Shown here: positions 1-36,593 of the stretch, in pieces
Position numbering within the stretch: position 1 is the stretch's first letter
Layout of the letters: the number at the start of each line of letters is the position of its first letter
From: Auanema rhodensis
Lineage: Eukaryota > Animalia > Nematoda
DNA length: 64,000 bases
Direction of reading: 5' to 3'
NCBI GenBank assembly: GCA_964057225.1
Contig: OZ059896.1
Coordinates: 12,834,001 to 12,898,000, forward strand
Notes under the pieces: generated by a model
Databases searched by the model: none
Seen by the model: only the letters and a program-made list of their open reading frames with translations
Told to the model about the DNA's origin: nothing
Program-made: the position numbers and the translations under genes

Positions 1-1010
1 GGTTGAGAATACTGATAGCGTAGTTCACGAAGTAATTCTTTTGCTTTATATACCACAGAACGTGGATCTCCAAATGTGAAGTTGAGATAGTTTTGATATA
101 CTGTGAATATCAAAAATTCGAGTGGTGGCACATATTCTGTTTCGGATAAGATTGCAGGTATTTGTATCAATTCCCATAATTTATCTCTTGCAACCAAAAT
201 TGTAGAATTGCCTGGTTTAACTATTCTTTTTATATAATTGATAGGAAGTCGGTGTGCTAGTTGACCGATGACAAAACTAGGCTCCATTTGTTCGATCCAC
301 ATTTTTGTAATCATCTTGCTTTCTTCTCCTCCTAGAGCATGTAGTAAGAGAATATTCGGATCGCGGAAGTCTTTTAAATTTGCCCAGTAATCTATAGTGT
401 GCTTGGGGTGTGGGTGTTTTCCAAACTACTGAACCATCTCCAAATGTACAGCTTCCCATTTGAGCTTTACAGCCTTCTGCGTTGACAATTAAGTCAGATA
501 CAATAGTATTGTCCTTTAAATTTGTAATAACTCCTCGCTCCATCACAAATTGAGTTAAGTTGGCGCATTAAGTAAAACTGAAGAAACGTTCCGGTTCATA
601 TACTGGCTTAGGAGCTTCATATGTAAGTGGATTAGCGCTCAACAGTTTTTCATTTTTCCATTTCTTGTCTCGAGCAGCTATACGGCATTCTTCTACAGAT
701 ACATATCCATTACCAATGATGGTGTCGTTGTTTTCTCGGAACCAAAATTGATCCGTTACACATAATCGATAGATGCGTGTATAACACTTCCACGCTTCCC
801 ATGTTACGACGGTTTGTTTAGGAATGAACAATTCAACGTTAACTTGATGAGCTTGTTGAATTGCTTTCCGTTGGCATCCTGTTATCTCTGGTGGTGTCAT
901 CAGAAATCCTCCTTTATGAGCTAAACATAGTTGATATGAAGCATTCACAGTGGGAAGCAGAAATGTGCAGATTATTGTTGTGAGCAGGAATGGTAATGCA
1001 ATAGTATTTA
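1..1010 (-). pseudogene. env: env-like glycoprotein of element A (class III fusogen-like), broken by stops, frameshifts and deletions
   Basis: Signal peptide IALPFLLTTIICTFLLPTVNA|SYQLC, then GGFLMTPP..C, WEAWKCY, GCKAQMGSCTFGDGSVVW and basic SRRRRK (ORFs 568-948 and 277-546); aligns by eye with 30497-32975. Confidence 0.75.
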
Positions 1011-1936
1011 TATTGAATCGAGGTTTCCATCGTCTTTGATTGCCTTGATTCTCTTTTGGATAATTGTCGCGATTATTCCTAGAAAAGTTGTCTCGATTTT
1101 CTCTTTGATAATTGTTGCGAGTTTCTCTCTCGAATGATGATGACTCTCCATTGAGTAGTTGTTTCCATAATTTTGTCGAGGGCCAGAGTTCCTGCTGAAT
1201 TTATTTTTGAAATTCCTCCAAGGGTTTCTTGAATTGTTGCCATTGTTCCGTTCGAAATCTCGTGGCTGCTGATGGTTTTACTGCAGAAATCAACTCTTGC
1301 ATAGTTGAGTTTTCTTCATGCTGTTTCTTATAGTTAGCACGAATTGCTTCTTCAAAACGTGCTGTCCTTTTTGCTTCCTCAAAAGTCTTCGGATCTTTTC
1401 CTTGAACAATTATGCCTAAATCAGCGTTCAATCCATTTAAGAAAGCTGATCTTAATATGAGCTCTCTTTCTCGATCAGTTGGGCTCATAATACTGGAAGC
1501 CATTTCTTCCAAGTATGAGGCAAACTGAGTAACAGTTTTCTCTCCTTGCGTCGAGCGTAGCAACTTCGCGATCGTGAAATTCCTTTCCGTGGCAGGGCAA
1601 AGTAACTCTGCCAATTGTGAAACAAGGTCTTTCCAAGGCCCTCGTTCACGAATTTCGGAAGGAATCGAGTTATATGCAGAGATCGCAGAATCATTCTGCT
1701 GAAGCAGCAGAGGAAGAATCGTATTTGGGGCAGTGTGGACTGCCTAGAACTTTTGTTAAGGTTTTGGTCAACTCTGGAGATGCCATTAAATTAGGCGTTT
1801 CCAGAGTTGAATCTCTGTTTGATTGCTCATGTGGTCTCATGTTGAGTAGGAGCTTCAGAGGTAGTTTTTCGCGCTGGGGAGTTTTTTCTTCTTTCGGTGT
1901 TACAGCCAAGTGTGTTGGCGTTTTTTCGTCGTCCAA
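1011..1936 (-). pseudogene. gag: gag of element A (fragmented)
   Basis: CPKYD, MHR-like QGEKTVTQFASYLEEMA and AFLNGL motifs, then an N/R-rich region; frameshifts and a deletion relative to element B. Confidence 0.8.
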
Positions 1937-2901
1937 TGGACTTAAATCGTTGTCAAACGAGTCGTCACTATCGGGAAAAGGAAATCGAGAAATACGATTT
2001 CTCTTGTCTCTTAATCTTTGAGAGATACGGAAAGGCGTATCCGTATAATTATTCTTGGAGGTTGCCGTTTTGGAAAAGGAGGAAAGTCAGAACAATCTAC
2101 AATGTAAAATAGTGGAATAAGTTAGTAAACAAGATAAGAATATGAATAGTTGATAGTGAATAAGCTAGTGAATAACATGAAAAAAAAATTGAAGAAGAAA
2201 AAAAAAGATATATAATAATATGGGTTGAAGATTAATTAATTAATGAATTCATAGAAAAACAAACTATAGAGAGGACAAAAAAAAAGTGTGAATATAATTA
2301 ATTGTTAAGATGATGATAGGATATGATTATGTGACAATGTGATTCATAAATTAGAGAAGTGAGTATGGCGGACAAATCAAAATCTCAATTGTTACTGAAT
2401 AACAATGAATTACCAAACAAGGCATCTTTCAAATTCCAAAGTCTTTGTTTCAACTTGAATCAACAATCAAAAAATTATGAGAGGAAGGTTTAAATTCAAA
2501 TATGACAAATGATACAGCGGATGTTATTTTCTTACAGTGGCCATTCTGTTAGTACAAACTTGTAATCTTTATCAAAAATATCGCAAATTGACTTTATTAA
2601 GGTCCAATTTTGCTTATATCAAACAGCTTTTCCATTTCCAAAAAATATATATTTTTCGCCACAATGAAAAATCAAAAATACAACTGCGCAGAAACAAAAA
2701 GAAATCGAAAAGTTGGCCAATTCAGTATCTCACCCTTGCGCAAAATATCAACCCTGTTTATTAAAAAAATGAGTGAGACCCTTCGTACTGAATTGGAAAG
2801 AGAGGTGGTAGCCCAGGGAAATAGCTCAAAAAAATATATTCTCTTTAACTGAATGATAATTCATAATTTAATCGAGTTCGAAAAACGTAAAAAGATTCTA
2901 A

Positions 2902-2914
2902 GGTGGAACCTCCA
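2902..2914 (-). promoter_or_regulatory. primer binding site, tRNA-Gln (TGGAGGTTCCACC)
   Basis: Directly inside the LTR; complementary to GGTGGAACCT-CCA; identical to the PBS at 35241-35253. Confidence 0.85.
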
Positions 2915-3316
2915 TGTAATATCCTTGATTTGGATATTAATGTTCCATGTTATTGACCCTTAGATTGATGTGTTGTAAAGGAAACAATAAGATTTGAGGA
3001 AGAGAGAAAGATTTATTATAAATAAAAAAACATTTAAACAATAAACAAATAAAGATAAAGATAAGTCCGCCAACTGAAGATTCAGTTGAATGGCAAACTT
3101 ATATAGCGAATGTTATCAGCATTTTCCACGAAAGGTTATAAGTTGTCAATGACAATTATAACTATCTCAGAAAATGCTGAGGCTGCAAAGTATAACTGAT
3201 AACATAATACACTAAGACAAGAAACTAGAATTATAAAATATAAAATATAAAACACAGAATAAAGAAATACATAAAAATTATAGAAAGAATAAAGTAAAGA
3301 ATTATAAAGTATAACA
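2915..3316 (-). repeat. 5' LTR of element A (about 402 bp)
   Basis: TGTAATA...TATAACA termini, adjacent PBS, AATAAA on the minus strand near 3013-3018, and BEL env sequence resumes at 3317. The partner LTR is not in the window. Confidence 0.7.
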
Positions 3317-4040
3317 GTGTTGGATAATTATATGGTTCGAATTCAGAAATACGAGAGCGATGATTCATAGTTTCACAAGTTTGATCACAAGATCCCATAT
3401 GAGCACATCGAAAATTAACGGTTAGTTTAGGCAAAGTAGCCTTTGTAAAAAATTTTGTGGTTTTCTTACATTCAAAACTTGTATATAATTTTCGAATTTA
3501 AATATAACCAATAGAATGATTTTTAAATTTTATATCCATATATAACGATTCAGATAATGTGTAGAAACCGAATGAATAACGTGATGATCGGTACAAGCAG
3601 TAGCATTATTGATAAAAAATATTGTAAGTATACTGATAATTGATAATCGAGAACCTCTTTTCCAAAATGGAGGATATAATTTAGGTTCTATATGTGGAAT
3701 ATTCTCAGATGAAGTTGGAGGAGGTTCAATAACTCCTAATTCAATATCATTCTGTTCCGGAGTATGAGGTCTAAGTGTGAAAAAAGAAGATATGTAACGA
3801 ATATCATTAGACCAGGAATTATATCGATATTGATGGAATCCTATGCGTATACAACAACAAAGGATGCCAAATAAACAACAAAGTGGTAAGAACAATGACC
3901 ACATGGCAAGATGAGGAGCACAATGTGGGTTTCCAAGCAAATGTATGGATAAAAACTTTGCCTCATCACATACTATAGAATTTGCAGATGCTACGGGTAA
4001 AAATATCGATATTATTGTAAAAATTAAAATTGCAGACGTC
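3317..4040 (-). pseudogene. env: phlebovirus Gn/Gc-like (class II) env remnant of BEL 1, internally deleted and interrupted by element A
   Basis: Signal AILIFTIISIFLPVASA, NPHC plus TM, second signal IISILTIFFINNATA|C, then FECKKTTKFFT..RCAHMGSCDQTC..EFEPYNYP. This Cys pattern is typical of nematode BEL (Cer13/Atlas-type) Gc. Confidence 0.7.
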
Positions 4041-7000
4041 ATTGCTGATTTGAAATTCTTTCGCGAAGCGTATGTGATGTGATCTTGTAAAGGTAAAGTG
4101 TGAACACGTTTTTCGTTTGTTTCAGTAGATGGTTTTACGTCGTTTTGGTCAATGGTAGTCAAAATTATGGTTAATTTATTTCTTTGTATTGCTTTTTTCA
4201 TTGCATTTTTAGTAATTCCCACCATTCTTTCCCAAGAACCTCCTTTCCATGGAGACTTAGGTGTGTTAAAGAGCCAATTTATGTTATTTTTGGCTAGATG
4301 GACTACAATATCAGCTGGAGTGAAATTAAATTCAGCTGATTTTTGTATTGTCTCAATTAATTGAGCTCCGAGAATAAAATTACCCCCACAATCACTTCGC
4401 ATTGTGGTTGGTAAACCTCGTTGGGCTATGAAACGAGTGAAAGTGTTCATAAATGAAGTCGCTGTTTGATCATAGACCATTTCAAGATGAATGGCACGTA
4501 TGGTTAAGCAAGTAAAAAGACATACATAGACCTTATGTCCACTTTTAAGCATAATAGGTCCAAATAAGTCGCAACCAGTGTTAAGAAATGGTTTAGTTAA
4601 TATCACTCTATCTTTAGGCAATGAAGGCATATCAGGAGTGCCAAATGGTAAAGATTGATATTTATTGCATAAATGACATTTCTTTAAAGTTTGTTTTATA
4701 ATTGCTGCAGCGCGAGCAATAAAATAAGTTTGACGAAGATGTGTGATCAAAAATTCTTTTCCTTGATGAAAAGATGCGCGATGAGCGTCCATAATTATGT
4801 GTTGAGTGAATAATGAGTTGCGAGGAAGATAAATTGGGTTTTTTGTATCATAGGATAGTAAAGAATTTTGTAATCGGCTTCTTACTCGAATTATCTCGTT
4901 ATCATCATGATAGAAATGATAACCAGGATATTGTCGTCGTAAATAATCAATAATGAGATGATCTTGAGCTTGTCGAATTAAAATAGTACGTATTATCTTC
5001 AAATCAGTTGTTAAAACGGGATATGATGTTGATATTTGTGAAATATTCCGTAATTTATGTCCATTTTGATTTTTAAATGTTTTTAAATGCCAAATTTTTA
5101 TAATTTTAGCCAAACGGGCTAACAAACGTAAAGTTGCAAAATGACCGTTGTGATAAGCTAGGTTATGTTCCAAGGGTACAGATATAGCTTGAGCTATAAG
5201 TAATGATACAGGTGAAACATGCATCACTTGCAAGGAACCATATGGTATTAAAGCTTGAACGGTTCTGTTAAGAATCCACTGTGGTCCAAGAAGCCACATA
5301 GATTCCTGAAGTTGATATTTATTGGCTCCTTGTGAACCAATGTCAGCCGGATTATAATCCGTAGTAACATGGTAAAATTGAACATTAATCGAATGTTCTT
5401 CTAATACACGGGTCATATGTTGTACATTTTGAACTTGTTTTGCTATGAAGTCAGGTAATTGCTTATTTGTTAAAATCCATGATAACGCAATGCTGCTATC
5501 ACTTACAATATTTAGTTTTTTACATGGTAATTCCATTAATATTGTGTGAGAAAGTCTCATAGCTAATCGAATAGCTAAGAGTTCCATGCGTGGAATTGTA
5601 ATTGGTGTTTTAGGAGATAAGCGGCTTTTACCTGCTAGAATAGAACTCATTTTGTTGTTTGTCTGTATGTAAGCACACACAGCTAACGCTGTTGAACTAG
5701 CGTCAGCAAAGACCCATAATGTACCTTCTTCAATAGATGGTGATAGTACACGAGGTACAGTAACCTTAGCATAATTAATCTCGTTAATTATTGATGTCCA
5801 AGAGGCTGATAATTCAGAAGGTATAGTATCATCCCATTCTGTTTTAAGTGCAAAATTATCTCTAAGAATAACCTTCAAGGGTAAAATTAATGGATTTGTT
5901 ATGCCCAAAGGATCATAAACTGAATGTAATTGTTGTAATGCGTTTCGTTTGGTTACTGTTGAGAGTTCCGGTATATTGAATCGAATTGAAAGGGAATCAC
6001 TTAGAGCATTATAAGGTACTCCAAGAATTTTTAGTGCACAATCATAGAGAATATCATCTTTATGAAGGTGCTGAAGAGCTTCTGACTTATTTAATGCGAA
6101 TTCACGAACATGCATCGAAATATTTTGAAATAATTGTTGTGTAAGTGAACATTTCTGTTGAGCTTCATCTATACTATCAGCAAATAATAGAATATTATCT
6201 ACATATAATGTATTTAATATTTCATCTGATAAGTCAGTATTCAAAGAGCTTAAATACCAATTTACACTCATGTTTAGAATGCTAGGTGAGGCAGTCAATC
6301 CAAATGGTATGCGTTTGAATCGAAAAACCTTAGTATTACTTGAGTTACAACTTCCTTGAGGATCCTTTACCCAAAAGAAACGGCAAAGATCCCGATGTTG
6401 CTTCTGTAAGCCTACTTGTAAAAAGGCTGATTGAATATCACAAGTAATAATGATTGGTTTTATTCTTGAAGCAATTAGAATGTTGAAAATATTGTTCACA
6501 AAACTTTTTCCAGTATATAGTATGTCGTTAAGGGATAATTTACCCTTAGGTTTAGCTGAAGCATCGAAAACAACTCGTAAAGGTTTATTCGGCTTGTTTG
6601 TATTCCATACCCCATGATGTGGAATATAATGACATATAATATCAGAATTATGATTATTGTTGGAAGTTTCAAAAGGAACTTCTTCAATGATACCGTTATC
6701 GATATAATCATCAATAATTTTCCTGTACATTTCCAATTTCGAAGGATTTGCTTGTAAACTTTTGAACAATGCCAAAAATCGATAAAAGGCTAAACCTTTA
6801 TTATTTGGTAATTGATGATAATTTGATTTCAATGGTAAAGGAGCTTCAATACGATGATTGGTTAGTGTCAACTGTTTTGAATAATCTTCGTAATAATCAA
6901 TAGTTGTGTCAATTCCAGCTTCAGAAGTATTAATTCCTAAGCTATGAATTTCAAATATGTATCGAAGCATATCATTATGTTGTAATGGTTTATCATTAAT

Positions 7001-7756
7001 TGTTATTAACGTAACAGAATGATTTTGATATGGTATTTCCCCATACAAGGTATAACCGAAACTGGTATTCTGCATTCTTAATGTAGAGGGTAACTCAAGT
7101 TCAGAATTCATATGAACGAATAACTTATAGCGATCTAATCCAATTAGAATATCTGGTTTAAATACCTGACCATCAATCATTGGATTAGCTAAAGTTATAT
7201 TGTTTCTTTTAATAAATGAACGATCATTATTGTCTAAAAGTGGAGCTCTTAATGATGTAGCTATGAATGGTTTCGTAAGCATGTTGGTTATGATGATACT
7301 GCCATTAGAAGTATGAAAAATAGTTTTCACTTCTTTACATTCATGTGTTTCGCTGAGGCCACCTATTCCAAAGAATGTGCGATGTTGAACTTTGTTAATA
7401 GGCAATTGAAGATCCTTAGCTATATCACTACGTATGAAAGACCGCATAGAGCCACTGTCAATCACTACCTTTACTGTGATATATTTATTTTGTGTGTAAC
7501 TGAATATATGTGTCATAGCTGTTTTCAATACAATTTGACTCATCTCGATATCATGGGTATCCTCGGTATGTGTAAGCAATTTTAATTGTGTATTCTTAGG
7601 TTCAGTAACTATTAATGTTACTGGTAGATGATTGAAAAATGCTGGTTGTACTGTAGGTACTGTTTGTGATACAGTTGGTGTAGAAATGATGTCATTTTTA
7701 TTTTGTGAGACTGTAAGGTCTGGAGTTTGTTGTCCTGCACTTTCTGTTATGATCAT
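3530..7756 (-). CDS. pol: BEL/Pao Pol polyprotein (aspartic protease, RT, RNase H, integrase with deleted C-terminus) running into the env remnant
   Basis: IDSGSMRSFI; RVVFDASAK, DIQSAFLQV, RIPFGLTASP, LYVDN; YDPLG; FADASSTA; H-H-C-C zinc finger, GCDLFGP, RSDCG, WERMVG. Confidence 0.92.
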   Translation of the reverse strand: MIITESAGQQTPDLTVSQNKNDIISTPTVSQTVPTVQPAFFNHLPVTLIVTEPKNTQLKLLTHTEDTHDIEMSQIVLKTAMTHIFSYTQNKYITVKVVIDSGSMRSFIRSDIAKDLQLPINKVQHRTFFGIGGLSETHECKEVKTIFHTSNGSIIITNMLTKPFIATSLRAPLLDNNDRSFIKRNNITLANPMIDGQVFKPDILIGLDRYKLFVHMNSELELPSTLRMQNTSFGYTLYGEIPYQNHSVTLITINDKPLQHNDMLRYIFEIHSLGINTSEAGIDTTIDYYEDYSKQLTLTNHRIEAPLPLKSNYHQLPNNKGLAFYRFLALFKSLQANPSKLEMYRKIIDDYIDNGIIEEVPFETSNNNHNSDIICHYIPHHGVWNTNKPNKPLRVVFDASAKPKGKLSLNDILYTGKSFVNNIFNILIASRIKPIIITCDIQSAFLQVGLQKQHRDLCRFFWVKDPQGSCNSSNTKVFRFKRIPFGLTASPSILNMSVNWYLSSLNTDLSDEILNTLYVDNILLFADSIDEAQQKCSLTQQLFQNISMHVREFALNKSEALQHLHKDDILYDCALKILGVPYNALSDSLSIRFNIPELSTVTKRNALQQLHSVYDPLGITNPLILPLKVILRDNFALKTEWDDTIPSELSASWTSIINEINYAKVTVPRVLSPSIEEGTLWVFADASSTALAVCAYIQTNNKMSSILAGKSRLSPKTPITIPRMELLAIRLAMRLSHTILMELPCKKLNIVSDSSIALSWILTNKQLPDFIAKQVQNVQHMTRVLEEHSINVQFYHVTTDYNPADIGSQGANKYQLQESMWLLGPQWILNRTVQALIPYGSLQVMHVSPVSLLIAQAISVPLEHNLAYHNGHFATLRLLARLAKIIKIWHLKTFKNQNGHKLRNISQISTSYPVLTTDLKIIRTILIRQAQDHLIIDYLRRQYPGYHFYHDDNEIIRVRSRLQNSLLSYDTKNPIYLPRNSLFTQHIIMDAHRASFHQGKEFLITHLRQTYFIARAAAIIKQTLKKCHLCNKYQSLPFGTPDMPSLPKDRVILTKPFLNTGCDLFGPIMLKSGHKVYVCLFTCLTIRAIHLEMVYDQTATSFMNTFTRFIAQRGLPTTMRSDCGGNFILGAQLIETIQKSAEFNFTPADIVVHLAKNNINWLFNTPKSPWKGGSWERMVGITKNAMKKAIQRNKLTIILTTIDQNDVKPSTETNEKRVHTLPLQDHITYASRKNFKSAMTSAILIFTIISIFLPVASANSIVCDEAKFLSIHLLGNPHCAPHLAMWSLFLPLCCLFGILCCCIRIGFHQYRYNSWSNDIRYISSFFTLRPHTPEQNDIELGVIEPPPTSSENIPHIEPKLYPPFWKRGSRLSIISILTIFFINNATACTDHHVIHSVSTHYLNRYIWI

Positions 7757-7806
7757 GCTTGTGGACGATATAGGTTTTACAGGACTCTTTGTTTCACGAT
7801 CTAAAT

Positions 7807-9116
7807 TTAGACATAACTGTTATGCTCATTTTTGCATTTCGGGCATTTCGGTCGAGAACAATCACGACTGCGATGTGAAGTAAAGAAACAAAACCAGCAT
7901 ACTTCTTTGTTCTTTAAGATTTCACGTTTTTTCTGTGGTGTGTCATAAGTACGGCAATAATAAGATGGATGTCCTTCTTTACCACAAAAAACACAAGTCC
8001 AAATCTTTTTAGTGGATTTGTCGAAAGTTTTATCAACATGTTTTCCACGATTTGGTGAATTATGTGAGTCATGTTCTGAATTTCGTTTTCTAGTGTCCAT
8101 TAAACTGAATTCATAAATTCGTGAAGAGAGATGTGGATAAATGTCATCCATTGATTGATCTAGAGGATCTGGTTGACGATATAGTTCACTCATTATATAA
8201 TGAGGAAATTTTTCAGCGCAAATAGTAAAAAAAAATGCAGGACAAATATGACTTCCAGCGGCTGTAATTTGACGATCATAGCTTTGGATCAAATCAAATA
8301 ATTGCTTACAGCTTTTTGCATCAGAAGCAGGAGATAAATTTTTCATTTTCCTCAATAATTGAAGTTTATCTGTAGCATATCTCATATATGCATCTTCAAG
8401 TGCTTTTCTCAGTAAGAGATAGTCGTTTTCATTAGGTTCAATTCCCCTTATAACGACCAAAGCTTTATCGGATAAGCCTTCGAGTAAAATATTCACTTTA
8501 TCAAGTATGGAATATTGTGAATTTTGATGTATCATGTTATTAAATCTTGACCAATAGAGTTTGAAATTTTCGGGTGTACCATCGAAAGTCGGTATTTGTG
8601 TTACCGGACGTTGAATGTGATTGCTTGTTTGTAAGAATTGTAATAAATTGTAATAAATTTGTGTTGTTTCGGTACCAGTGCTTTCGATTACTTTTTCGTT
8701 CTTTTTCTCGGGAAGTAGTGATTCCACGAATGCAATTGCTGTTTTAATATGACTGATACGTTCAAGGAGTAATAATCTTTGTTCGTCAGCTATATTGTAA
8801 GTTTGACGATTGTTTGGATTTTCTTCAAGTTCTTTGTATAATGCTTTCATTTCGTTTCGAAGTTCCTTATCAGAATCTTTGAAAACGGTTTGGTATTTTC
8901 TATGTTTCTGTTCACTGTGTCGAGAGCAGTAGAGAGCTCGTTCAATACCAATTCATGATTGCGTAAAGTTGATTGCAGTAAAATAATTCTATCGTATGTT
9001 ATTTCTGAATCAGATACCCCGGCGGGTTCGTTGTCGAGAAGATTTGCGTAACGTTTGAGCAAAACGGATAAGAAGTCGTATGAACGACGAATTTCGTCAA
9101 CAAATGAGGAGGCCAT
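7807..9116 (-). pseudogene. gag: BEL/Pao Gag (frameshift near 8848)
   Basis: IPTFDGTPENFKLYWSRF (DUF1759-type motif); knuckles CVFCGKEGHPSYYC, CWFCFFTSHRSRDC, CPKCKNEH. Confidence 0.88.
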
Positions 9117-9758: not shown

Positions 9759-9830
9759 GGTTCCGTGGTGTAGTGGTTAGCACTCAGGACTCTGAATCCT
9801 GCGACCCGAGTTCAAATCTCGGCGGAACCT
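9759..9830 (+). tRNA. tRNA-Gln-CTG: tRNA-Gln (anticodon CTG), intact
   Basis: 72 nt, GGTTCCG/CGGAACC acceptor stem, A box TGGTGTAGTGG, CAGGA-CTCTGAA-TCCTG anticodon arm, GTTCAAATC T-loop, oligo-T terminator at 9836-9841. Confidence 0.97.
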
Positions 9831-10610
9831 TCAACTTTTTTATGTTTCTTTAGTTTTTGTCTGGAACTTTGAGTATTCGAAAATAAATATTTACTACACT
9901 AGCAAGCGGAAGAAAACCTTATACTAGTTCATTGTTTTTTTTTAAATTTGTTTCGGTATATTTATTTTTTCACTCTCAAATCGGCAAGCACCTGCTGCAC
10001 ATGTGCGAGTATTCGAGTAACCGATGCCCAAACGAGCCACGCTTAGAAAATGAGGCTGACATAACACGTTTTTCACTCCTACCCAGATTGATTGCTTTAG
10101 AGACATTCCTGTCTTATCTCATTATATTCTCTATTTTGATTTTTCTAAATTTTCATTAATGTATAATTCAAACTGTAATTTCTTGTGATCAGATTGTTAA
10201 TCGTTATATCTGTGAACGTTTCTCGCAAAATAGTAAGTAGAGTGTTCAGTTGTGCCCACTCAACAAAGAAAGTAGAAGAACACATATATTTAGAGCAAAA
10301 AAAGTGCGGAAAAGTCGTTATCTCGTTAACATCAGTTTCACTGCCCAAAACTCTGTTTCTTAATGTCCGAGGTCATATGATGAAATCTAATTTCGCACTT
10401 AGTTGTTGAAAATCAAACAAGATTCTTCTCAATTGACCACAACTACAGCACCAAACTTGGAAAAGTACAATCAGCTGAGTTCAAACTTCGAGAAAGTTAA
10501 AATTTCGAATCTCCTCTCAATCATTTTGTTCCTCCTTCTTTCTTTTTTGTTTTACACAAAAGGGAGGATTAAATCTCATATATGACAATTCTCTTGTGAG
10601 AAATTACAGT

Positions 10611-17280: not shown

Positions 17281-17408
17281 CACGTTTTTTACTCCTACCC
17301 AGATTGATAAGTGCAAAATTAGATATCATCATATGACCTCGGACATTAAGAAACAGAGTTTTGGGCAGTGAAACTGATGTTAACGAGATAACAACTTTTC
17401 CGCACTTT
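11576..17408 (+). repeat. near-perfect tandem triplication, 3 x 1944 bp
   Basis: Identical ORF sets at 12093, 14037 and 15981; I saw only three substitutions among the copies. Confidence 0.97.
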
Positions 17409-17906
17409 TTTTGCTCTAAATATATATGTTCTTCTACTTTCTTTGTTAAGTGGGTACAACTGAACACTCTACTTGCTTTTTCGAGAGAAACGTTTACAGA
17501 TATATCGATTAACAATCTGATCACAAGAAATTACATTTTGAATTATACATTAATGAAAATTTAGAAAAATCAAAGTAGAGAATATAATGAGATAAGACAG
17601 AAATGTCTCTAGAGCAATCAATCTGGGTAGGAGTAAAAAACGTGTTATGTCAGCCTCATTTTCTAAACGTGGCTTGTTTGGGCATCGGTTACTGGAATAG
17701 CTCGCACATGTGCAGCATGTGCTTGCCGATTTGACAGTGAAAAAATAAATATACCGAAAAAAACTAAAAGAAACAATAAACTAGTATAAGGTTTTCTTCT
17801 GCTTGCTAGTGTAGTAAATATTCATCTTCGAAGACTCAAAGTTCCAGACAAAAACTAAAGAGAATCTGTGAAACATATATCGGCCAAAACAAAATACAAA
17901 AGTTGA

Positions 17907-18248
17907 AGGTTCCGCCGAGATTTGAACTCGGGTTTTTGAAGATAGAGGGCTCTTCAAATAGCCTCCCAGGTTCACACTTTCTATTCTATGCCCTGTTTAC
18001 ATAAAAGACTATTATAAAAAGAAAGATTCATTAAGATAACATACATATACTACATCATACGCTACAAAGACTGGAATAATTATAAGAAGACTAGATAGAC
18101 ATTGCCAAGTAAACTAAAGATGGTTATACGAAAGGGCAAGTAGGAAAACGGTGGTTCAGACTAGATGAGTCATACGATATTCCGCCGAGATTTGAACTTG
18201 GGTCGCAGGATTCAGAGTCCTGAGTGCTAACCACTACACCACGGAACC
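17907..18248 (-). pseudogene. tRNA-Gln(CTG) copy disrupted at its 3' end by an insertion
   Basis: 18180-18248 holds tRNA nt 1-69 (lacking the final CCT); 17907-17933 holds the duplicated 3' end, followed by the normal downstream flank. Confidence 0.9.
17934..18179. mobile_element. 246-bp insertion flanked by a 24-bp direct duplication of the tRNA T-arm; origin unknown, LTR-like composition
   Basis: TTCCGCCGAGATTTGAACT(C/T)GGGT at 17910-17933 and 18180-18203; absent from the intact unit. Confidence 0.7.
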
Positions 18249-18310
18249 ACTGTAATCTGTCACAAGAGAATTGTCATATATGAGATTCAATCATCCCTCA
18301 ACGCACCCAT

Positions 18311-23892: not shown

Positions 23893-23943
23893 ATCGAACC
23901 GCACGCGCGCAATACAAAAGTTACACTAGATCATTCTACTAAA

Positions 23944-24398: not shown

Positions 24399-24651
24399 GA
24401 AATTTGTCATTAATAACCTGCTACATTACGTGGTCAGTTATGAATATTCCTTGTCACTGTGAATTATGTGTCAAATACACGTTGGAGCAATCTAAACCAG
24501 CGCCTTTATACAGGAGAATATTGAAATGTATTTGAGTGCCATTTATTAAAGGTATAGCATTGGGATTGGGCTTTTGTACAACACTAGTCATATTATTGCT
24601 CATTATATAAAAGTGGGTTGATGGCGTGTGGTCGTTTTTCATTTTCCTCTA

Positions 24652-25116: not shown

Positions 25117-25121
25117 AACGT

Positions 25122-25757: not shown

Positions 25758-25761
25758 AGGC

Positions 25762-26142
25762 CGTTACATATCGTTTCTTCCCGTCTTTTCATGGTCGGAA
25801 GATATATGTACTTCTACCTTGTTCCTTAGGTAGGCAGACCCGAACGCCCTGATTTCCTTATTAAGACAAATACTTAAAGAGAAAAGGATTCATTATCAGA
25901 TAACAAGAAAATACAATATAAGAATTACATTAAGAAAGAATATAAAGATATATAATAAAGTATTAAATAGAGAATATATATAGATGATATAGAGATGAGA
26001 CTCACATGACTATAAGACAACCTATCTGGGTTAGACCAGAAGCAAGAGTGCCATGTGTGTCCCATGTTGTAGGCGGGGCTTGTTCAGGCTCCCGCTATTT
26101 GAATAGCGCGCACATGTTCACCATGTGCTAGCAGATGTGACA
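25762..26142 (-). repeat. 3' LTR of element B
   Basis: Matches 35254-35634 with one mismatch seen. Confidence 0.97.
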
Positions 26143-26158
26143 TCCCCCCACCTTAAAA
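26143..26158 (-). promoter_or_regulatory. polypurine tract (AAGGTGGGGGGA)
   Basis: Purine run directly preceding the 3' LTR TG on the minus strand. Confidence 0.85.
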
Positions 26159-26740
26159 GTTGAACGTCCTCGTTCAAAAACAAAATTAATTAATTCACTT
26201 TTTAAGATAGTTGGATGTTGGAAAAAAAATCATGGTGTAGTCGATAAAAAAAAATGTATACAATACGATTTGAAAGTTTAGCTATTGTCTCTTCAAGTTT
26301 GTTGAATTTAAAATGTAGTATCGAGTAGATTCTATTCCATTCACTTGAGTAGTGAAATGCTTGCAAACGAGAGCTTTGCTTCTAAACCATTCGACTGTGA
26401 TATAGTCGTTCATTTTCTTGAGTTGTACAGGTACGGTGTTACCCTGAGAATAGGTCGAGCCCGTTCTGTACAAAAAAATGAAAACTCGTTTAACCCGTAT
26501 GACTAATGTCCATAAGGTGAATACAAGTAATGATTAAGCATAAAAAAATAGCAAGATTCACAAGAGAATGTTGAAAAAAAAAATCTACTCAATGAGAGTT
26601 GGAGTAATAAAACAAAACCTTGTAAAACAATAGCAGACTTCTCAGAGAAAATCAATCAACAACAAAGAAGTGTTACAATCAGAAATGGCACAAAATAAAA
26701 AAAAAATTCAACAGTTTGATTTTGTTAAAAAAAACTACCT

Positions 26741-28017
26741 TCAAGAAATTGTGATAACCGGAATAGATGTTGTCCGTTGGTAAGGTTTGACGAAATCCTT
26801 GTGTACTCTTCTGCTTTTTCCTTTATCTGTTTGAACCACGACGAAAGATCTTTGAACTGCTGTAACTAAATAAGGCCCTTCGAATGAAGGTGTTAGTTTG
26901 TTTCGAGTAGAATTCACTTTTATCATAACTAAGTCATTAATCTGAATTTCTTTATTTTGTGTTCTATTTCGTGTATTGTACCGTTGTTCATTCTTCTTTG
27001 TGCATGTTTCAATTCTATCTTTTACTATATTAGATGTGCTTTCATTTTGTATTAGCGATCTATTGACAAAATCTTCTGTAGGATTGGCTGGTTCTTCAGT
27101 TTGAAGATTATTTCCAGGCAATTGATGGTCAATAGTAAGTCTTGCATCCCGACCAAATAATACAACATATGGACTAATAGATGTTGATGAGTTTGGTAAC
27201 GTATTGATCGCAAACATAACTTTGGGTAGGTGTATATCCCAGTTAGTTTGTTGTTCATTCACGAATGAAGAGAGAGCTTCTTCCAAAGTTCTATGAAGTC
27301 TCTCAACTTGTCCATTAGCATTTTTATAATATGGTAGCGTAGTAGTGTGTTTAATTCCAAATTGTTTACACATAGCTTGAAATTCAGATGACAAAAAGCT
27401 ACTACCATTATCGGTTATCATACTCATTGGTGGTCCATATATGAAAACAAATCTAATTACAAACGCTTTTGTGATTTCAGTAGCCGTTTGTGTTATTAAT
27501 GGGCAAGTTGTTCCCCATTTACTAAAAGCATCTTGAATACTCAAGATGTATCGATGTCCATCATTAGTGCGAGGTAAAGGACCTAGTATATCTACATGAA
27601 TACGATCAAATGGCTTTTCGGGTATAACAAATCTTCCCATAGGTTGAATATACGATTGGTGTGGGTTAGATTTCCTACTTGCACATTTTGTACAACGATT
27701 AATAAATTCAGTTATTTGTGGAACCATATTAGTCCAAAAGAATCGTCGTCGAATCGCATCAGTAGTTTTATTTATACCTAGGTGTGCACCAATTTTGGAA
27801 TCTTCGTGAAAAAATTTGATGACAACATCAGTTATTTTGTCGTTTCGAGGCAAAATAATAGATGGTTTTGAATAATTTTTCGCTTGTTTTGCATGTAATA
27901 TGCTTTCTCGTTCTTCATACCGGTCTGATATATTAGCCGGACAGTTATCATTATTAATTTAAGAAAGTGCTTCGCGAATCCAGGGAACTCCAGCTTGAAC
28001 TTTCCGTATTTCTTCAC
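26741..28017 (-). pseudogene. int: Gypsy integrase (frameshifted from RT/RH)
   Basis: H..AHLG..C..C, HVDILGP, ITDNGS, VERLHRTL, FEGPY. Confidence 0.92.
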
Positions 28018-29380
28018 AATTTAGTTGGTCAATAGAAGAAATAGTTGTGATATGAGCAATAAAAGCATCAACAGGTTTTACTTTGTCCTTTGGTTTAGTA
28101 GGACGACTGTCATTTGCTTCGTTTCCTATATACCTGGAGAGAGCATCACAGACACTGTTTAATTTGCCAGGACGATATTCAATCTTCATGTTGAAATCTT
28201 GTATCATTAGTTGATACTTGGCTAATCTACCTATGAGATCTTTACGCGACATTAAACTGGTTGATGGTCGGTGATCTGTGATAACTGTGGTAGGTACTCC
28301 TAATACATAGGTACGGAATTGTTGAAGAGCAAAGACTAAACCGAGTGCTTCAACTTCAATAGGAGGATATTTCCGTTCCGCTGGAGTCAACTTTCTACTA
28401 GCGAACGCAACGATCATACTGCCATCACTTTCTATAACAAAAGGTTGGTCTGCTTTAGGAGGTTTCAGTACAGGGGCAGTACACAGTAATGTTTTTAAAG
28501 TTTTAAATGCGTCTGCATGTTCCGATTTCCACTCAAAAGGAGTATCCTTATGTGTTAACTTATACAATGGCTTATCTATTCCGGCATAGTTTTGAATAAA
28601 CCGTCGAAAATAGTTAGTCATACCTAGAAAGGATCTGACAGCCGTAACTGTACTTGGATTTGGAAATTCGGAAACAGCCTGTATCTTAGCAGGATCTGGT
28701 TTAACACCATTTCTACCTATTACAAAACCCAAAAACTTTACTTCAGTGGCTGCAAAGCAACATTTAGATAACTTAATTTTCAACCCTAGTTCAGTGACCT
28801 TTTTCAGCACTTCTTGTATATCTCTTAAATGTTCTTCAGCTGAGTTCGAAATTATTAGCAAATCACCTAGATATACAAACAGTTTGCATCTAACAAGTGA
28901 TTGCAAGTATCGTACTGCGGATTGAAAAGTGTGTGGCGCTCCACACAATCCCATAGGCATTCGGCAATACTGATAGGTACCTGATGGAGTGGTAAAAGCA
29001 GTTAGGTATCTATCTGAGCGTTTCAACGGTATTTGGAAGAAACCAGAAATGAGATCAAAATTCGAAAAGAACTGAGCTCCAGCCGCTAAGTCTATGATAT
29101 CAGGAATGTGTGGGATGCTGTATGTTTGTTTCTTAGTAACACTATTCAATGCTCTAAAGTCAGTAGCGAACCGGAAAGAATTATCTTTCTTTTTAACAAG
29201 AACAACCGGACTAGTGAAAGTAGCCGTCGAATTTTCGATTATACCTTGCGACAACATTTCTTTCACTTGCCGTTCTACTTCTTCTTGCTTACCCAATGGT
29301 ACTCTGTAAGATCTACTTTTTGGAAAATCCATATCAGATCTTATAGGAATGGCATGTTCAACTGGTCCGCAAAAGAGGTT
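27959..29380 (-). pseudogene. pol: Gypsy reverse transcriptase / RNase H, inactivated
   Basis: SPVVLVKKKD, DFRALN, DLISGFFQI, MPMGL; catalytic YxDD reads YLGD; RNase H lacks the GAVL strand after ESDGS. Confidence 0.92.
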
Positions 29381-29650
29381 CAGGTGGAACTTAATCGTTC
29401 ATAATTTCTTTAGATGCTATAAGTCCTGAACCAATGTGGTCATTTTTATTAATTTTAATTGGCTTTGAAGAATTGTTTGATACTACCATAGTAATAGGAA
29501 AAGGTCCTATGGCGGCATCTGAAATTGAGATAGGACCTGTGCTAGATTTTAAAAGAGCATATTGATCAAAATCTAATTCTGGTCCTGTTTGCAAAGATAT
29601 GTGGGAGGTACTATGTGGTGGAACTGTTACTGTGGACAAACTTATGATAT

Positions 29651-30496
29651 TTACTGTTTTAGTTGTGGTTTTATATGCAAAACAACCAGGTTTACTAAGG
29701 TTGTTTCCATATTACCAACAATCAACTTTCCTTTACATAGTTTTAATGTAGTAAATATCTCTCTTTCTTCCAACGTACGCATAAAATCAGTACCAAGTAA
29801 CATTTGTCCTGGACAGTCATTGTCTTCAGATATTAAAAATTCGTGTTCCACTTGGTAACCTGCTATACCCACATCTAACTTGCATTTTCCCACAAAGCGA
29901 AACTCTGATCCATTTGCAGTGGATGCAGATCTAGAATATTTTGTAAAATATTGTCTTCCAATATATGCCAATGTGGAAAACGGAATATATGAGACCGTAG
30001 CTCCAGAATCCCATAATTCTAACAGTCCTCTACCTTCAATGTCAATATGAACAAACGGTAACATGTGTCCATCTTTCTTTGTTGTTGTGTGACATACAAA
30101 AGGTATGGCTAAAAGAATGTAAGTTATGATGGTGGGAAAATAGCTCCGCATCAATTCATCACTAACTGTTTCATGAATCTCATCTCCCTCAAGTGGTGGA
30201 GCTGTTGGGCTCAACATGATATGGTTTATTTTTAACATAGAAGTAGGGGAGAGATAACATTTTATAGTGAAATATAATGCTATCATTAGACATAATATCA
30301 GAGTTATACAACCGATGGTAATGAGTGTTCGTTCAATTGAACCTATACAAAAGTCAATGAACAGATCTCAATTGGAGAAAACAATTTTCCTGGCATCTCT
30401 TATAAGTTTACTTCCTTTGAAGATGAAAGAGGAAATTTGAGGCCAATCATGTGAACGAGAAATTACGCGGAGAAGATCATGGTGAGGTGAAGTAGA
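29651..30496 (-). pseudogene. env transmembrane anchor, cytoplasmic tail (PTAPP) and aspartic protease, in frame with gag-env
   Basis: Same frame as ORF 30497-34102 across stops at 30497-30499 and 30368-30370; TLITIGCITLILCLMIALYFTI, LWDSGATVSYI, MLLGTDFM. Confidence 0.85.
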
Positions 30497-33400
30497 TTAA
30501 CTATAACCATAAGTTAATCCAATAGATAAGGCTAAGGATTTTTCAGTCGAATTTTCAAACAAATTCCGCCCTGTTAATCGAAGTTTACTTTCTGAATGAA
30601 TACTATCTACTTTATGTGTGTCACCTTTATAATCTCTCCATGTTCCATTTTCATACCAAATCTCTGTCTCTTTGTGTTCACAATTGATCTCATGTCCTTC
30701 AGTGCTCAAATCGTAGCTATCGATAGGAGCAAAGAATAATTGTTTATCGTGTGTTAAAACAGGGGTCTCTGCATAACATTTATCATTGTAAGAATGATTA
30801 CGATAAATGAAATGTGGTTCTATTTCCTGACAAGTTGTTATTTTTAAAACATTTCTTCCAACAAATCGGGCAACGATATCATCCCGCTGAAGCATAGCTC
30901 GTACTCCTATTGTAGGATGTATACGTAATATAGCTTGCCAGCTTTTTACAGTTTCCATTTGAGATTTACAGATGATATGAAACTGTTGATGAAATTCGTC
31001 AATTATGGAGAGACGCGCTTTCTCAAACCCATAATTCAACTTATTATCTATTATCGTTTTAGTTTTATGCTCTGATTTGTGGAGAACATTGTCATATACT
31101 TCTGCTACATACAACTCTCGACCTCTCTCGTACGCATTAGGGGTAGGAGTTGTTAAACTACGAATTGTAGTTTTGGTGGCAGTTATTGGGGTTACAGTAG
31201 TATGCTGTACCATATTTTTATCAGTTGTGATTTGAGTTTTAACCCAACTTATGAATTCTAAAACTACTGTTTTATTGAATTTGGGATTTTCCTGTGGGTA
31301 TTCGATGGACTGTGGAGGAAATCCATAATATGCTGTACTATTCTTTGTATAAAGGTTGTGATAGTCAGGCAGCTTAGATATAATTGCTAAATCTTGCTCT
31401 TGGTTGTTTCCAACAGTAGCATCAGCTTTTTGTTGTCGACTGACTTGCATGTCACAAGATATTTGTTCTTTTCCCAATTGTTGTTGGATCATGAATAACA
31501 TGCCTTGAGCAGTTGCAATAATTTCAGATTGATTCATATTTCCACTGCGTGGTAATATAGATGGATATAAGGCTCTTACCAACTGTTCGATTGATGGAAC
31601 TGTTTGTGTACCATCAAGAATTGTGGCTTGATATACTACTGCGTGAGCCATTCCTCGAAAGAAGTCTTCTATGGATGTTGTAGATTTCATCAACGATCTT
31701 TTTAACCGAGGAACTTCTATACGACGAGCTACTTGAGTGATAAGATCATCCAATTTCATGCTAATCATCTGTCTAGTAGCCAGTTTAATTTCCTCTATAC
31801 CCATACATTGTAAAATCAAAAGATTGGGATCTTTGAAATTATTAGACTTTGCCCAGTTAGTTATATGATCTTTTGTCAATCCTAAACTAACAATTGTGTC
31901 AATGAACAGTGGATTATCTATCGCGAATTGGAGCAAACTTTCATAAGATGATGTAGCTGCATATCTCATATATTTTGCGTAAAACTTAGTGATAGATGCA
32001 GATCCAAAAATGAAAGTAGGTCTTAGAAAGGGAAACGCATATGGTTGGGATTTCGCATTAACAAAAAGATAATCATCACTGAAAGAGCGATGTTTTTGAG
32101 GTAATACATTACGTTTATTTCTGCGTCTATCAGCATTAAGCAAAGTATTGGAAAGATCAAGCAAATTATAAACACGGGGATATGCTGTGAATCGGATAAT
32201 TGCCTCAGAAGATGATTCAAAAACAGCGAATTCGAAACAAGATTGAACGTGAGCGGATGTGGAATGATTTTGGAGAACAAAAGCGCTTTCAATAGAGTGA
32301 ACTAGAAGAATATGATCACCCAACATGGCGGAGAAGGGGCCAAGTTTTTGATAGTGACAGACAACTGATGGGATAGGTGGTTGCCAGATAACTGCACCTT
32401 CACCAGTTGCACAAAACCCTTCATTTCCTTTACAATTATCAGTATTTATAAATAAATCTGATACAATGTGATCTTCTTTCAATCTAGTTATTATCCCTCG
32501 CTTCAATACAAATTGTTCAATTTCTACACATTCTTCAGTGGACCACGAGCGAGTTGGATTATGCTCGTTTAATGGTGTTTCAAAAACTGAATGCAGTTTG
32601 GCATTCATGATTTTATCATTCCACATACGATTTCTATGTGCTCGAACACAATCTTTTTTATCTACTGTTTCAAAATGAGAGAATGTGGTGTTACGATCTC
32701 TCAAAAACATGAAATCTCTCACACAACTTTTATACTTTTTCACATAGCATTTCCATGCTTCCCATGACTCTATCTCAGCCTTTGGTAGATATATTTCTAC
32801 CTCAACACTGTGAGCCTTTTCGATTTCTGCCTTATGGCAGCCTGTGACTACAGGAGGTGTTACTAATATACCCCCTTCAGATTGAGCGCAAATCTGATAT
32901 TTTGCCGACCCAAAGGAAAGGCATGAGAGTGCCAATAAAGTCAGGCACAACGTGACCGGTGGCATGAATGGGGTCGCTACGTTGTATACCCTTGAGTTAC
33001 CATTCCCATTGGCTGATGGTCTTTGTCTTCTTGGGGAACTAGGCCTAGGGTTCCAAGACGAGCTATTGGCATTTCTGCCATTCGCAAATGGGCGGTTTCC
33101 CGGGTTAGGACGCCTATTCATATTCCCGTTCTGCGAGTTATTATTATTATAACGTACGGCAGAAGGTCGCTCTCTCTCTCGCTCATAATCATTAGAGCCA
33201 TTATTGTGCTGAGTCCAGTTATTATTTTTTTTATAATTTTTATAATTTTTATTATTATTATTATTCCTACTTCTTTCTCTTTGTTCACTAAAGCTTAATT
33301 TATGCTGTAAAGCATTTATGAGCTCCTTCAAGGTGCTGGTGTCTTCATTTCTTTTCATGAAGCTATTTCGAACGTCTTCTTCAAACCTAGCTAATTTCTT

Positions 33401-34102
33401 AGCTTGTTCATAAGTGACGGGGTTTTTAGTTAAAACCGCAATACCCAGTTCCTCTTTTAAACCATTTAAAAATGCCGTTTTCAACATTGGTTCCCGCTCG
33501 GGATCCATTGGTGACATTATGGTGCTTGCCATTCTCTCCAATTCCATACTAAAATCAAGAACAGATTTATCTCCTTGTTGTACTCGATGAATAAGCGCTA
33601 TGGTGAAATTTTTATCTGTTTTAGGCGCTAAAAGCTCAGTGAGCTGATCCATCAAAACAATCCATGGGCCATTAGTTCTTATGCCACTAGGAATACTATT
33701 ATACAAGGAGAGAGCTGTTTCGTTTGATTCCAAAAGAAGAGGTAAAATTAATAGTCTCTCAGGTAAGCTTAGAATCATAAGATTAAAAAATCTATTTAAA
33801 GATTCAACAAAAGAACGAAAGCTACGAGAGCCGTCATACCTGGGACAGAGATAGCAATTTAAAATAGTTGCCATATTTCTAGAGGGTGGAGCAACATTAG
33901 AATTAGGAGATGGAGAGGTAGGAGTCATTTTTCTTTCAAAAGCTTTAGTTATAGCAGCGGCCCACCGACTTGGTGATCTATTTCGTACTGTAGTAGGTGC
34001 CCGAGGTGTTTCCTCAGTGATGGCCTTTCTGCTTTTACTTCTCGTTCTAATTGTTAGAGAAGAAGAGTGAGAAGAAGAAGAGGAATCACCTTCTTCTCTC
34101 AA
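30497..34102 (-). CDS. gag-env: Gag fused through an internal signal peptide to a class III (herpes gB/chuvirus G-like) envelope ectodomain
   Basis: Gag: CPRYDG, QGDKSVLDFSMELERMA, AFLNGL. Signal VTLCLTLLALSCLSFGSA. Cys-rich ectodomain with furin-like RRRNKR and RLKR, and IC..WQAILRIHPT.GVRA.L.RDDIVARFVG..C..CY..TPV. The true start codon is uncertain (frame open from 34249, first ATG near 33929). Confidence 0.82.
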   Translation of the reverse strand: MREEGDSSSSSHSSSLTIRTRSKSRKAITEETPRAPTTVRNRSPSRWAAAITKAFERKMTPTSPSPNSNVAPPSRNMATILNCYLCPRYDGSRSFRSFVESLNRFFNLMILSLPERLLILPLLLESNETALSLYNSIPSGIRTNGPWIVLMDQLTELLAPKTDKNFTIALIHRVQQGDKSVLDFSMELERMASTIMSPMDPEREPMLKTAFLNGLKEELGIAVLTKNPVTYEQAKKLARFEEDVRNSFMKRNEDTSTLKELINALQHKLSFSEQRERSRNNNNNKNYKNYKKNNNWTQHNNGSNDYERERERPSAVRYNNNNSQNGNMNRRPNPGNRPFANGRNANSSSWNPRPSSPRRQRPSANGNGNSRVYNVATPFMPPVTLCLTLLALSCLSFGSAKYQICAQSEGGILVTPPVVTGCHKAEIEKAHSVEVEIYLPKAEIESWEAWKCYVKKYKSCVRDFMFLRDRNTTFSHFETVDKKDCVRAHRNRMWNDKIMNAKLHSVFETPLNEHNPTRSWSTEECVEIEQFVLKRGIITRLKEDHIVSDLFINTDNCKGNEGFCATGEGAVIWQPPIPSVVCHYQKLGPFSAMLGDHILLVHSIESAFVLQNHSTSAHVQSCFEFAVFESSSEAIIRFTAYPRVYNLLDLSNTLLNADRRRNKRNVLPQKHRSFSDDYLFVNAKSQPYAFPFLRPTFIFGSASITKFYAKYMRYAATSSYESLLQFAIDNPLFIDTIVSLGLTKDHITNWAKSNNFKDPNLLILQCMGIEEIKLATRQMISMKLDDLITQVARRIEVPRLKRSLMKSTTSIEDFFRGMAHAVVYQATILDGTQTVPSIEQLVRALYPSILPRSGNMNQSEIIATAQGMLFMIQQQLGKEQISCDMQVSRQQKADATVGNNQEQDLAIISKLPDYHNLYTKNSTAYYGFPPQSIEYPQENPKFNKTVVLEFISWVKTQITTDKNMVQHTTVTPITATKTTIRSLTTPTPNAYERGRELYVAEVYDNVLHKSEHKTKTIIDNKLNYGFEKARLSIIDEFHQQFHIICKSQMETVKSWQAILRIHPTIGVRAMLQRDDIVARFVGRNVLKITTCQEIEPHFIYRNHSYNDKCYAETPVLTHDKQLFFAPIDSYDLSTEGHEINCEHKETEIWYENGTWRDYKGDTHKVDSIHSESKLRLTGRNLFENSTEKSLALSIGLTYGYS

Positions 34103-35240
34103 AAATTCAAAAGGAGAGAGGTAGGTGGATGGAGTATTTAAGTTTTTAGAATTAAATTCAAAAACTTGGCGTACCTCTGGTGATCCTTGTTCCTGATCTT
34201 TGCTTTCCTCGCTGATGTCCGAGTCCGACAGGGTGGCTGGTGAATAAAGTTAGATGAATATAAGAGCGCGTACTGGAAGCAACTAGACTCCAGTAAAAAC
34301 GTTTGTGACAATGGCGTCTGATGAAGGAGGATCGTTGAAGCTTCAAGCTCCGCCTCCAGCCATGTGTCACGACACCAGATGTTAGCGCTTATGGTAAACA
34401 ACCATTGACCGTCTGTCGTGATATTTGAATATTATAATCACTAATGTCAGCTTAGAGACAAATAAGGAATCACAGATGGTGCCTTAAGCCTGTTTGAAAA
34501 CTTTTGAATTTTAACAGCTGGTATTGACTACACATGCCGAACAGCTGGTACGCGTGGGCCAACTATTTGAATGTGAGTAAGCTTAAAGTAAACAAAAATG
34601 TCTCATCTCGTATATTAAGTTCAATTTTATAAAGTTTATTAAGATTTGTAGAAATAATTTCAAAATAAATCTTAATTAAGATAATTTTTAATTTAATTTC
34701 AAAAGATTGAGAAGGTAATTTAAGATTGATATAGGAATTTAAATTTGGTAATCTGTCAATAATATAGGAAAAAGGAAACGTTGGCAGACGTAGAGTGGAC
34801 TTGGGTGGGTAGGAATTTAAATATTCTTATTATCTCTGAACTAATAAGAAAAGAGTTAACAGGAGTCGAACCCTGATGAACCCTTGGATGTGAATCAAAA
34901 TCAAAAAGTCGTAAATTAAATTATCCCAACAGCCTCCAGCTTCCAAACAACTCAGCTAAAAAGTGAGCTCTGTTGCCACACTGGACATTCACATCATAAA
35001 GTAATGAATCAAAATAGCACGCGTGCATAACAAAAAGGTAACGCTCGTCAAAACTATTGTCTGATAGTTTCCCCAAACGTCTCAGACACCTCCCAGTTTT
35101 CGTTGAGCGGAGGAGAAGTGGTAGCCAAAATAATTTTTGGGGAAATCATGGTGCACGGCTCGGTTACTCCTCACTGTTGGGCAATTAAGTCCAAAAGTCT
35201 CGTAAACTTGCTGTCAATAAATTAACAGTAAAGTGAGCAA

Positions 35241-35253
35241 GGTGGAACCTCCA
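35241..35253 (-). promoter_or_regulatory. primer binding site, tRNA-Gln (TGGAGGTTCCACC)
   Basis: Abuts the 5' LTR. Confidence 0.88.
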
Positions 35254-35634
35254 CGTTACATATCGTTTCTTCCCGTCTTTTCATGGTCGGAAGATATATG
35301 TACTTCTACCTTGTTCCTTAGGTAGGCAGACCCGAACGCCCTGATTTCCTTATTAAGACAAATACTTAAAGAGAAAAGGATTCATTATCAGATAACAAGA
35401 AAATACAATATAAGAATTACATTAAGAAAGAATATAAAGATATATAATAAAGTATTAAATAGAGTATATATATAGATGATATAGAGATGAGACTCACATG
35501 ACTATAAGACAACCTATCTGGGTTAGACCAGAAGCAAGAGTGCCATGTGTGTCCCATGTTGTAGGCGGGGCTTGTTCAGGCTCCCGCTATTTGAATAGCG
35601 CGCACATGTTCACCATGTGCTAGCAGATGTGACA
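35254..35634 (-). repeat. 5' LTR of element B (381 bp)
   Basis: TGTCACA...TGTAACG; direct repeat of 25762-26142. Confidence 0.97.
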
Positions 35635-36581: not shown

Positions 36582-36593
36582 AGTGCTTGTTCA

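Follow-up and report, generated by a model that had tools for sequence, protein, structure and literature searches.

A decayed, partial LTR retroelement of the likely nematode GAG-ENV-POL kind in Auanema rhodensis

Introduction

The left end of a 64 000-nucleotide stretch of the Auanema rhodensis genome (contig OZ059896.1, positions 12,834,001 to 12,898,000; hereafter the window) raises the question of what kind of retroelement carries an envelope gene directly behind gag, and whether such an order was inherited or arose locally. A first-pass annotation compared this element (A) with a second one in the same window (B) and took their common gag–signal–env fusion as an old lineage trait. Our best explanation, in which we have high confidence, is that A represents the 5' portion of a decayed Ty3/gypsy LTR retroelement, in which an internal signal-like stretch joins gag to a gB-type env, and that it is likely to be of the nematode GAG-ENV-POL kind that has already been published.

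Layout of the window and of element A

Nested mobile elements fill the first 41 kb of the window and the remainder is a 176-bp satellite; the array at 41000–64000 holds ∼130 copies, including 170- and 175-bp variants. Element A lies on the minus strand, starts at 3316 and leaves the window through its left end. Its parts, together with its target site, are as follows.

2915..3316, minus strand: 5' LTR of A, 402 nt, from TG at 3316 to CA at 2915, with AATAAA at 3017
2902..2914, minus strand: primer-binding site (PBS) of tRNA-Gln type, adjoining the LTR; 12 of 13 letters as in the end of the tRNA-Gln(CTG) gene of the window
2087..2901, minus strand: long, AT-rich leader
1721..2086, minus strand: N-terminal piece of Gag, rich in S/T/P/E, in a frame different from that of the capsid part
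1282..1719, minus strand: capsid domain of Gag (Retrotrans_gag, PF03732, E 8e-6)
1012..1281, minus strand: R/N-rich linker without a zinc knuckle; two frame breaks in the window copy
1000..1011, minus strand: INTI motif ahead of the signal, a putative viral-protease site
940..1002, minus strand: internal hydrophobic signal ending in VNA; cleavage predicted by eye from small residues at -3/-1
399..939, minus strand: N-terminal part of a class III gB-type Env, with a premature stop at 568–570
398..399, minus strand: deletion junction in env; ∼0.5 kb of env gone in the window copy
3..398, minus strand: middle part of Env, leaving the window; 33% identity to B residues 796–911
3318..3485, minus strand: target site of A, the phlebovirus-G2-like env of a BEL/Pao element (PF07245, E 1.1e-9)

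The element thus opens with an LTR and a tRNA primer site, followed by a Gag of Ty3/gypsy type (PF03732, with Arc/PNMA capsid matches by family profile); the R/N-rich linker is likely to be nucleocapsid-like. Env stands directly behind gag with a signal, as judged by hydropathy.

The outer edge of the LTR is marked by a broken phlebovirus-G2-like frame that stops at 3318, and contigs from other samples have loose ends at 3316/3317, assignable neither to the flanks nor to a 3' LTR junction. The interrupted env frame and the loose ends together indicate that the LTR edge is correct and that A lies inside the env of another element; The target was the env gene of a BEL/Pao element, and A decayed after it had landed there. 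The host element (3318–8952, minus strand), which is partly deleted, has a phlebovirus-like Gn/Gc env, with A in the Gc part, and a pol at 3530–7819. A class III env element is therefore nested within a class II env gene; empty-site contigs exist. A second BEL/Pao-like element at 18284–22581 (plus strand), assigned by eye, is degraded and contains an 806-bp internal tandem duplication.

Element B and its surroundings

Element B served as the comparator.

25762..35634, minus strand: element B, whole; LTRs identical at 380 of 381 positions, with a 4-bp target duplication
30497..34249, minus strand: gag-signal-env of B, one frame of 1250 codons
29651..30367, minus strand: transmembrane segment (TM) and protease (PR), after gag-signal-env
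27959..29398, minus strand: reverse transcriptase and RNase H (RT/RH), after TM-PR
26741..27958, minus strand: integrase (IN), followed by the polypurine tract and the LTR; RT-RH-IN order of Ty3/gypsy

The interval between protease and RT (29391–29711, minus strand) gives a weak dUTPase-like match (PF04797, E 0.008). The Env of B contains RRNKR at 32111–32125 (minus strand), which we take to be a furin-like site, and its tail between TM and protease carries a late-domain-like motif, PTAP, at 30197–30208 (minus strand). Contigs covering B show two joints, 30108/34175 in all four runs and 26993/30075 in three, which suggest that a short non-autonomous derivative of B exists with most of gag, env and pol gone. 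A further run, X13, which may be RNA, also matches portions of B and was left out of the evidence.

B interrupts a Maverick/Polinton-like region (22423–25763 and 36012–38639); frames of this region include an integrase with a chromodomain and ATPase-like, protease-like and capsid-like proteins, and the empty-site joint without B occurs in three runs. An inverted duplicate (9759–10401 and 17308–18248) contains tRNA-Gln(CTG) genes beside an LTR-like repeat ∼65% like the LTR of B, with three 1944-bp tandem copies between its arms.

Comparison of elements A and B

The two elements had been described as having dissimilar LTRs, an identical 13-nt PBS, homologous Gag and Env N-terminal parts and a signal at the same position, and each of these statements was borne out. 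No collinear match between the LTRs was found by blastn. All that they have in common is one AT-rich stretch of ∼75 nt, the source of their highest local score (48, where 200 shuffles reached at most 46). The leaders do not align (score 29; shuffled mean 27). The window contains just two copies of the 10-mer TGGAGGTTCC, at 2914 and 35253, each adjoining a 5' LTR, and from its start A and B are identical over 15 letters. The first 13 letters of the PBS differ at one position from the 3' end of the tRNA-Gln(CTG) gene of the window plus CCA, and the primer is therefore likely to be another Gln isoacceptor. We rejected the identical PBS as evidence of kinship, since the tRNA forces these letters and the same 12-mer occurs in two Caenorhabditis elements.

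The proteins tell more. A tblastn comparison of B with A gave 39% identity over 486 residues (E 2e-109) and 32% over 108 residues (E 6e-11). The Gag capsid parts are 56% identical over 144 codons and the Env N-terminal parts 42% over 177 codons, with eight of eight cysteines in common. The N-terminal piece of Gag in A has no alignment to B above chance (score 48; shuffle maximum 58). The proposed cleavage motifs, LPTVNA|SYQLC at 957–925 in A and SFGSA|KYQIC at 32917–32888 in B, each directly follow the most hydrophobic 15-mer of their frame, so that the signals stand at an equal place as judged by hydropathy. Neither the signals (score 32; shuffle maximum 40) nor the linkers (score 54; shuffle maximum 53) were counted as aligning above shuffles; both are alike in character and composition only.

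Decay and selection

In the window copy of A, the last 60 codons of the linker, the signal and the start of Env form a single open frame (568–1200). The copy as a whole is broken at five places: near 1720, 1278 and 1124, at the stop 568–570 and at the deletion 398/399. Because A is not one open frame, its gag–env fusion can be read in the window copy only through these breaks. The intact continuous frames on which the published catalogue of such elements is based are absent from this copy, which describes the copy and not the family. At the deletion, B residues ∼643–792 have no counterpart in A, and contigs from X1 and X4 bridge the point with extra sequence. Contigs of four DNA runs from three studies match A, mostly at 95–99% identity (their depth was not taken as copy number), and the other-sample contigs differ from the window at every break that they cover, X10 having no coverage of 1–980; the breaks therefore look private to the window copy. 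Contigs from X2, X4 and X10 depart from the sequence of A at 1087, in the linker ahead of the signal, which suggests that env-less derivatives of family A exist and that the gag–env junction is missing from some members. No RNA run covering A was listed.

In the 15 coding rows among the 40 substitutions listed, of 111 between contigs and A, three fall on third, four on first and eight on second codon positions; this small, filtered sample gives no sign of selection on A since its insertion. The comparison of A with B reaches further back. Identities at first, second and third codon positions are 0.63/0.69/0.34 in the Gag capsid and 0.55/0.67/0.38 in the Env N-terminus, four-fold sites that agree number 9 of 28 in the former and 8 of 33 in the latter, and dN is 0.45–0.56. 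The dN/dS ratio was rejected as a statistic because synonymous sites have reached saturation, with a dS that is infinite or above 1 in each of the seven segments. With second positions best kept and third positions near random, both gag and env have been under long purifying selection. Purifying selection is thus seen on both sides of the junction; across the junction itself, where linker and signal do not align above chance, the codons do not show it.

Env class and element type

A profile of the B Env and 39 relatives matched herpes gB (E 1e-11) and glycoproteins of rhabdovirus size (E 1e-3), and the relatives match Monjiviricetes_fusion. An AlphaFold2 model of the B Env (mean pLDDT 69.7, pTM 0.46) is confident in an N-terminal β region and a long helix and poor in the middle insert; it matches HSV gB with E 4e-11 at low TM-scores of ∼0.2. 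Env is a class III gB-type fusogen, in B by profile and fold and in A by homology to B. A BEL/Pao element with a gB-like env was considered and rejected for both A and B, which have Retrotrans_gag and an env after gag. Neither has the marks of BEL elements (a DUF1759 Gag, Peptidase_A17 and an env after integrase), and BEL features are confined to the neighbour at 3530–8952.

Relatives and the gag–env junction

A HMMER protein search with the Gag-to-Env stretch of B found 153 proteins, of which 150 were listed. Word-index protein searches returned no relatives, either with the A frame 568–1200 (207 candidates) or with B residues 120–720 (7985 candidates, against 153 proteins by HMMER), and an IMG/VR scan gave seven pattern matches, none of which was confirmed. 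Among the 150 listed, 32 have gag ahead of env in one protein, and in all 32 a hydrophobic stretch lies between the two (13-mer hydropathy 1.87–2.99). None of the 32 has pol between gag and env; PR, RT or IN stands behind env in 13 of them, with integrase in five of these. In 11 of 12 long relatives examined, a TM-like helix lies 50–120 residues ahead of PR. The Gag and Env pieces of A both match 22 of the 150 listed. Among 20 relatives looked up, 14 had a species name and all 14 are nematodes; proteins with gag ahead of env come from Caenorhabditis, Diploscapter, Ancylostoma, Bursaphelenchus and Aphelenchus.

How would such a chain be processed? A working family would likely encode one long polyprotein, with reverse transcription likely to be primed by tRNA-Gln. 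The Gag portion would remain cytoplasmic, and the internal hydrophobic stretch would direct Env to the ER, whose lumen is where signal peptidase of the host would cut to expose the Env N-terminus. The TM helix would bring the chain back out, leaving PR-RT-IN on the cytoplasmic, inward side. Two cuts by the viral protease would then detach Gag from the remaining signal stub, and Pol from the tail of Env. We infer all of these processing steps and any infectivity.

A short motif, [VI]-N-x-[IVLA], may mark where the viral protease acts. Of 34 junctions, 14 have it within the 24 residues that precede the hydrophobic core, where 2.1 are expected from the same proteins and at most seven were seen in 2000 shuffles. 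This count is to be read as a lead, since the motif was defined after inspection of the same sequences and a number of the proteins that carry it are closely related. It is present ahead of the signal in A and absent there in B, which carries it after TM and at the protease end. By analogy, the motif [VI]-N-x-aliphatic is likely to be a candidate viral-protease site ahead of the signal; we did not find it described at that place in the literature searched.

In flaviviruses, an internal signal stands behind the capsid protein in the capsid–anchor–prM segment; the viral protease cuts it from the cytoplasm and signal peptidase from the lumen. The junction of A and B may work in a like manner, with a capsid, an internal signal and two proteases on opposite sides of the membrane, although flaviviruses are unrelated RNA viruses. 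Tentatively, since we regard it as slightly short of an even bet, we propose that cleavage at the motif ahead of the signal would release Gag on the cytoplasmic side, that signal peptidase would release Env and that cleavage at the same motif in the Env tail would release Pol, all from a polyprotein that passes through the ER membrane two times. The literature searched contained no description of signal peptidase acting on a retroelement polyprotein of this kind.

The hydrophobic stretch could instead stay in place as an anchor that is not cut, or Env could begin there through an initiation of its own, leaving Gag tethered to Env or made apart from it. Some gB-type ectodomains are indeed described as flanked by two TM segments and not by a signal (Chary & Hayashi, 2026; PMC13524379). 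We consider this unlikely: the stretch is short, with small residues just ahead of the first Env cysteine in A, in B and in most of the 32 relatives, a pattern typical of cleaved signals, and between 1200 and the signal A lacks a Met from which Env might be started separately. The alternative touches the processing of the element and not its identity.

Pol behind env

In B, PR-RT-RH-IN lie behind env, and the 13 relatives named above carry PR, RT or IN there; A is cut by the window edge before this point. In X1 and in X4, a single contig covers the linker, the signal and env of A and extends 1448 nt beyond base 1 of the window. In B the distance to PR from the homologous point is about the same, 1430 nt. 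On the strength of B and the relatives, we infer that pol (TM, PR, RT and IN) lies behind the env of A, beyond the window. Family A might alternatively be a non-autonomous gag-env element without pol that borrows its enzymes from B-like elements; its pol is indeed outside our view, and deleted derivatives are known in both families (the departure at 1087 in A and the two joints in B). This is very improbable, given that the sister element B has pol behind env, that the unrelated LTR and leader of A make B proteins an unlikely helper and that the contigs run on for about the distance that leads to PR in B.

Age and inheritance of the gag–signal–env order

Gag and env trees were built from 23 of the 32 relatives, hand-picked for longer matches, together with A and B (25 rows; median identity 21–23%). 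Identities in gag and env are correlated (Mantel rho 0.25, reached in none of 2000 permutations), a value that is descriptive because kin share labels. Matching groups appear in the two trees, whose deep parts are poorly resolved, with P0003 switching place. A and B are sisters in both (gag 100/99, env 95/83) and form a long branch of their own, the closest other relative having at most 30% identity.

As sisters in both trees, A and B are one witness and not two, and the argument for age therefore rests on the wider set. The earlier argument, that two diverged families with the same junction point to an old trait, is accordingly kept in its outcome, through the 32 of 150 listed relatives and the matching trees, and loses its two pillars, the independence of A and B and the identity of the PBS. 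On these sequence comparisons, the reading of the gag–signal–env order as an old, inherited trait of the lineage is supported. That the junctions of A and B had separate origins, or came from recent env swaps and not by descent, we regard as extremely improbable in view of the sister positions and the groups that recur in both trees, even though linker and signal cannot be aligned, the same Env family stands after integrase in six of the 150 listed and GAG-ENV-POL elements are reported as non-monophyletic across phyla (PMC13524379).

The six proteins with env after integrase are P0040, P0088, P0095, P0104, P0114 and P0137. The two that were scanned, P0040 and P0088, are BEL/Pao elements with a gB-type Env, so that a pool of gB-type env genes is common to both LTR superfamilies.

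Relation to known elements and significance

Nematode 'NERV' elements, attributed to Sacco et al. in 2022, are reportedly Metaviridae-like with a continuous gag-env-pro-pol ORF. By this description they resemble A and B in their nematode hosts, in having env ahead of pol and in the single frame; that work may already cover the signal and the cleavage sites.

The layout itself is in print. The paper of Chary and Hayashi (eLife 2026, PMC13524379) lists 36 nematode GAG-ENV-POL elements with an HSV/gB-type ENV, termed 'errantiviruses', with a Gln primer site in eight of the 36 nematode rows and in eight of the 11 Caenorhabditis rows; the exact 12-mer primer site of A and B occurs in Clat_4 and Ctro_1. 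The paper agrees with an old gag-env-pol order in nematodes, for which it cites Sacco et al. 2022. The novelty of the gag-env order that the first-pass annotation implied is therefore unsupported. A and B share with these elements the gene order, the gB-type Env, the Ty3/gypsy RT-RH-IN (in B) and the tRNA-Gln primer, and the cysteine pattern of the 'Nematoda_C1' Env rows resembles theirs by eye. The relative P0020 has a cluster mate on a C. brenneri contig of 12,007 nt, which is also the length stated in the same source for Cbre_errantivirus_2. A and B differ in forming a long branch of their own, A being moreover decayed and partial. A fused gag-signal-env chain or its processing is not mentioned in the parts of PMC13524379 searched ('fused' gave no matches), the sole paper on the gag-env-pol layout found in the literature searched.

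Atlas virus-type belpaoviruses of nematodes (PMC9094657) are similar in having Env within a single polyprotein with internal processing sites, and differ in being BEL/Pao elements of Gag-Pol-Env order with a class II phlebovirus-like Gc in place of a class III gB-like Env. A itself sits in an element of this belpaovirus type. Cer1 was rejected as a model, since the ORF proposed as env-like in it is the CERV protein (PMC10309623).

Family A is new and divergent, and likely of a published kind. To a specialist the window copy will be unsurprising, as it is dead and its layout is in print. Together with B it extends the nematode GAG-ENV-POL elements by a divergent branch of two families, and the gag and env trees confirm that the fused order was inherited. 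The candidate protease motif makes the placement of Env in the ER, between a cytoplasmic Gag and Pol, testable; if the proposed processing is true, a single polyprotein would build an enveloped particle with fixed ratios of Gag, Env and Pol.
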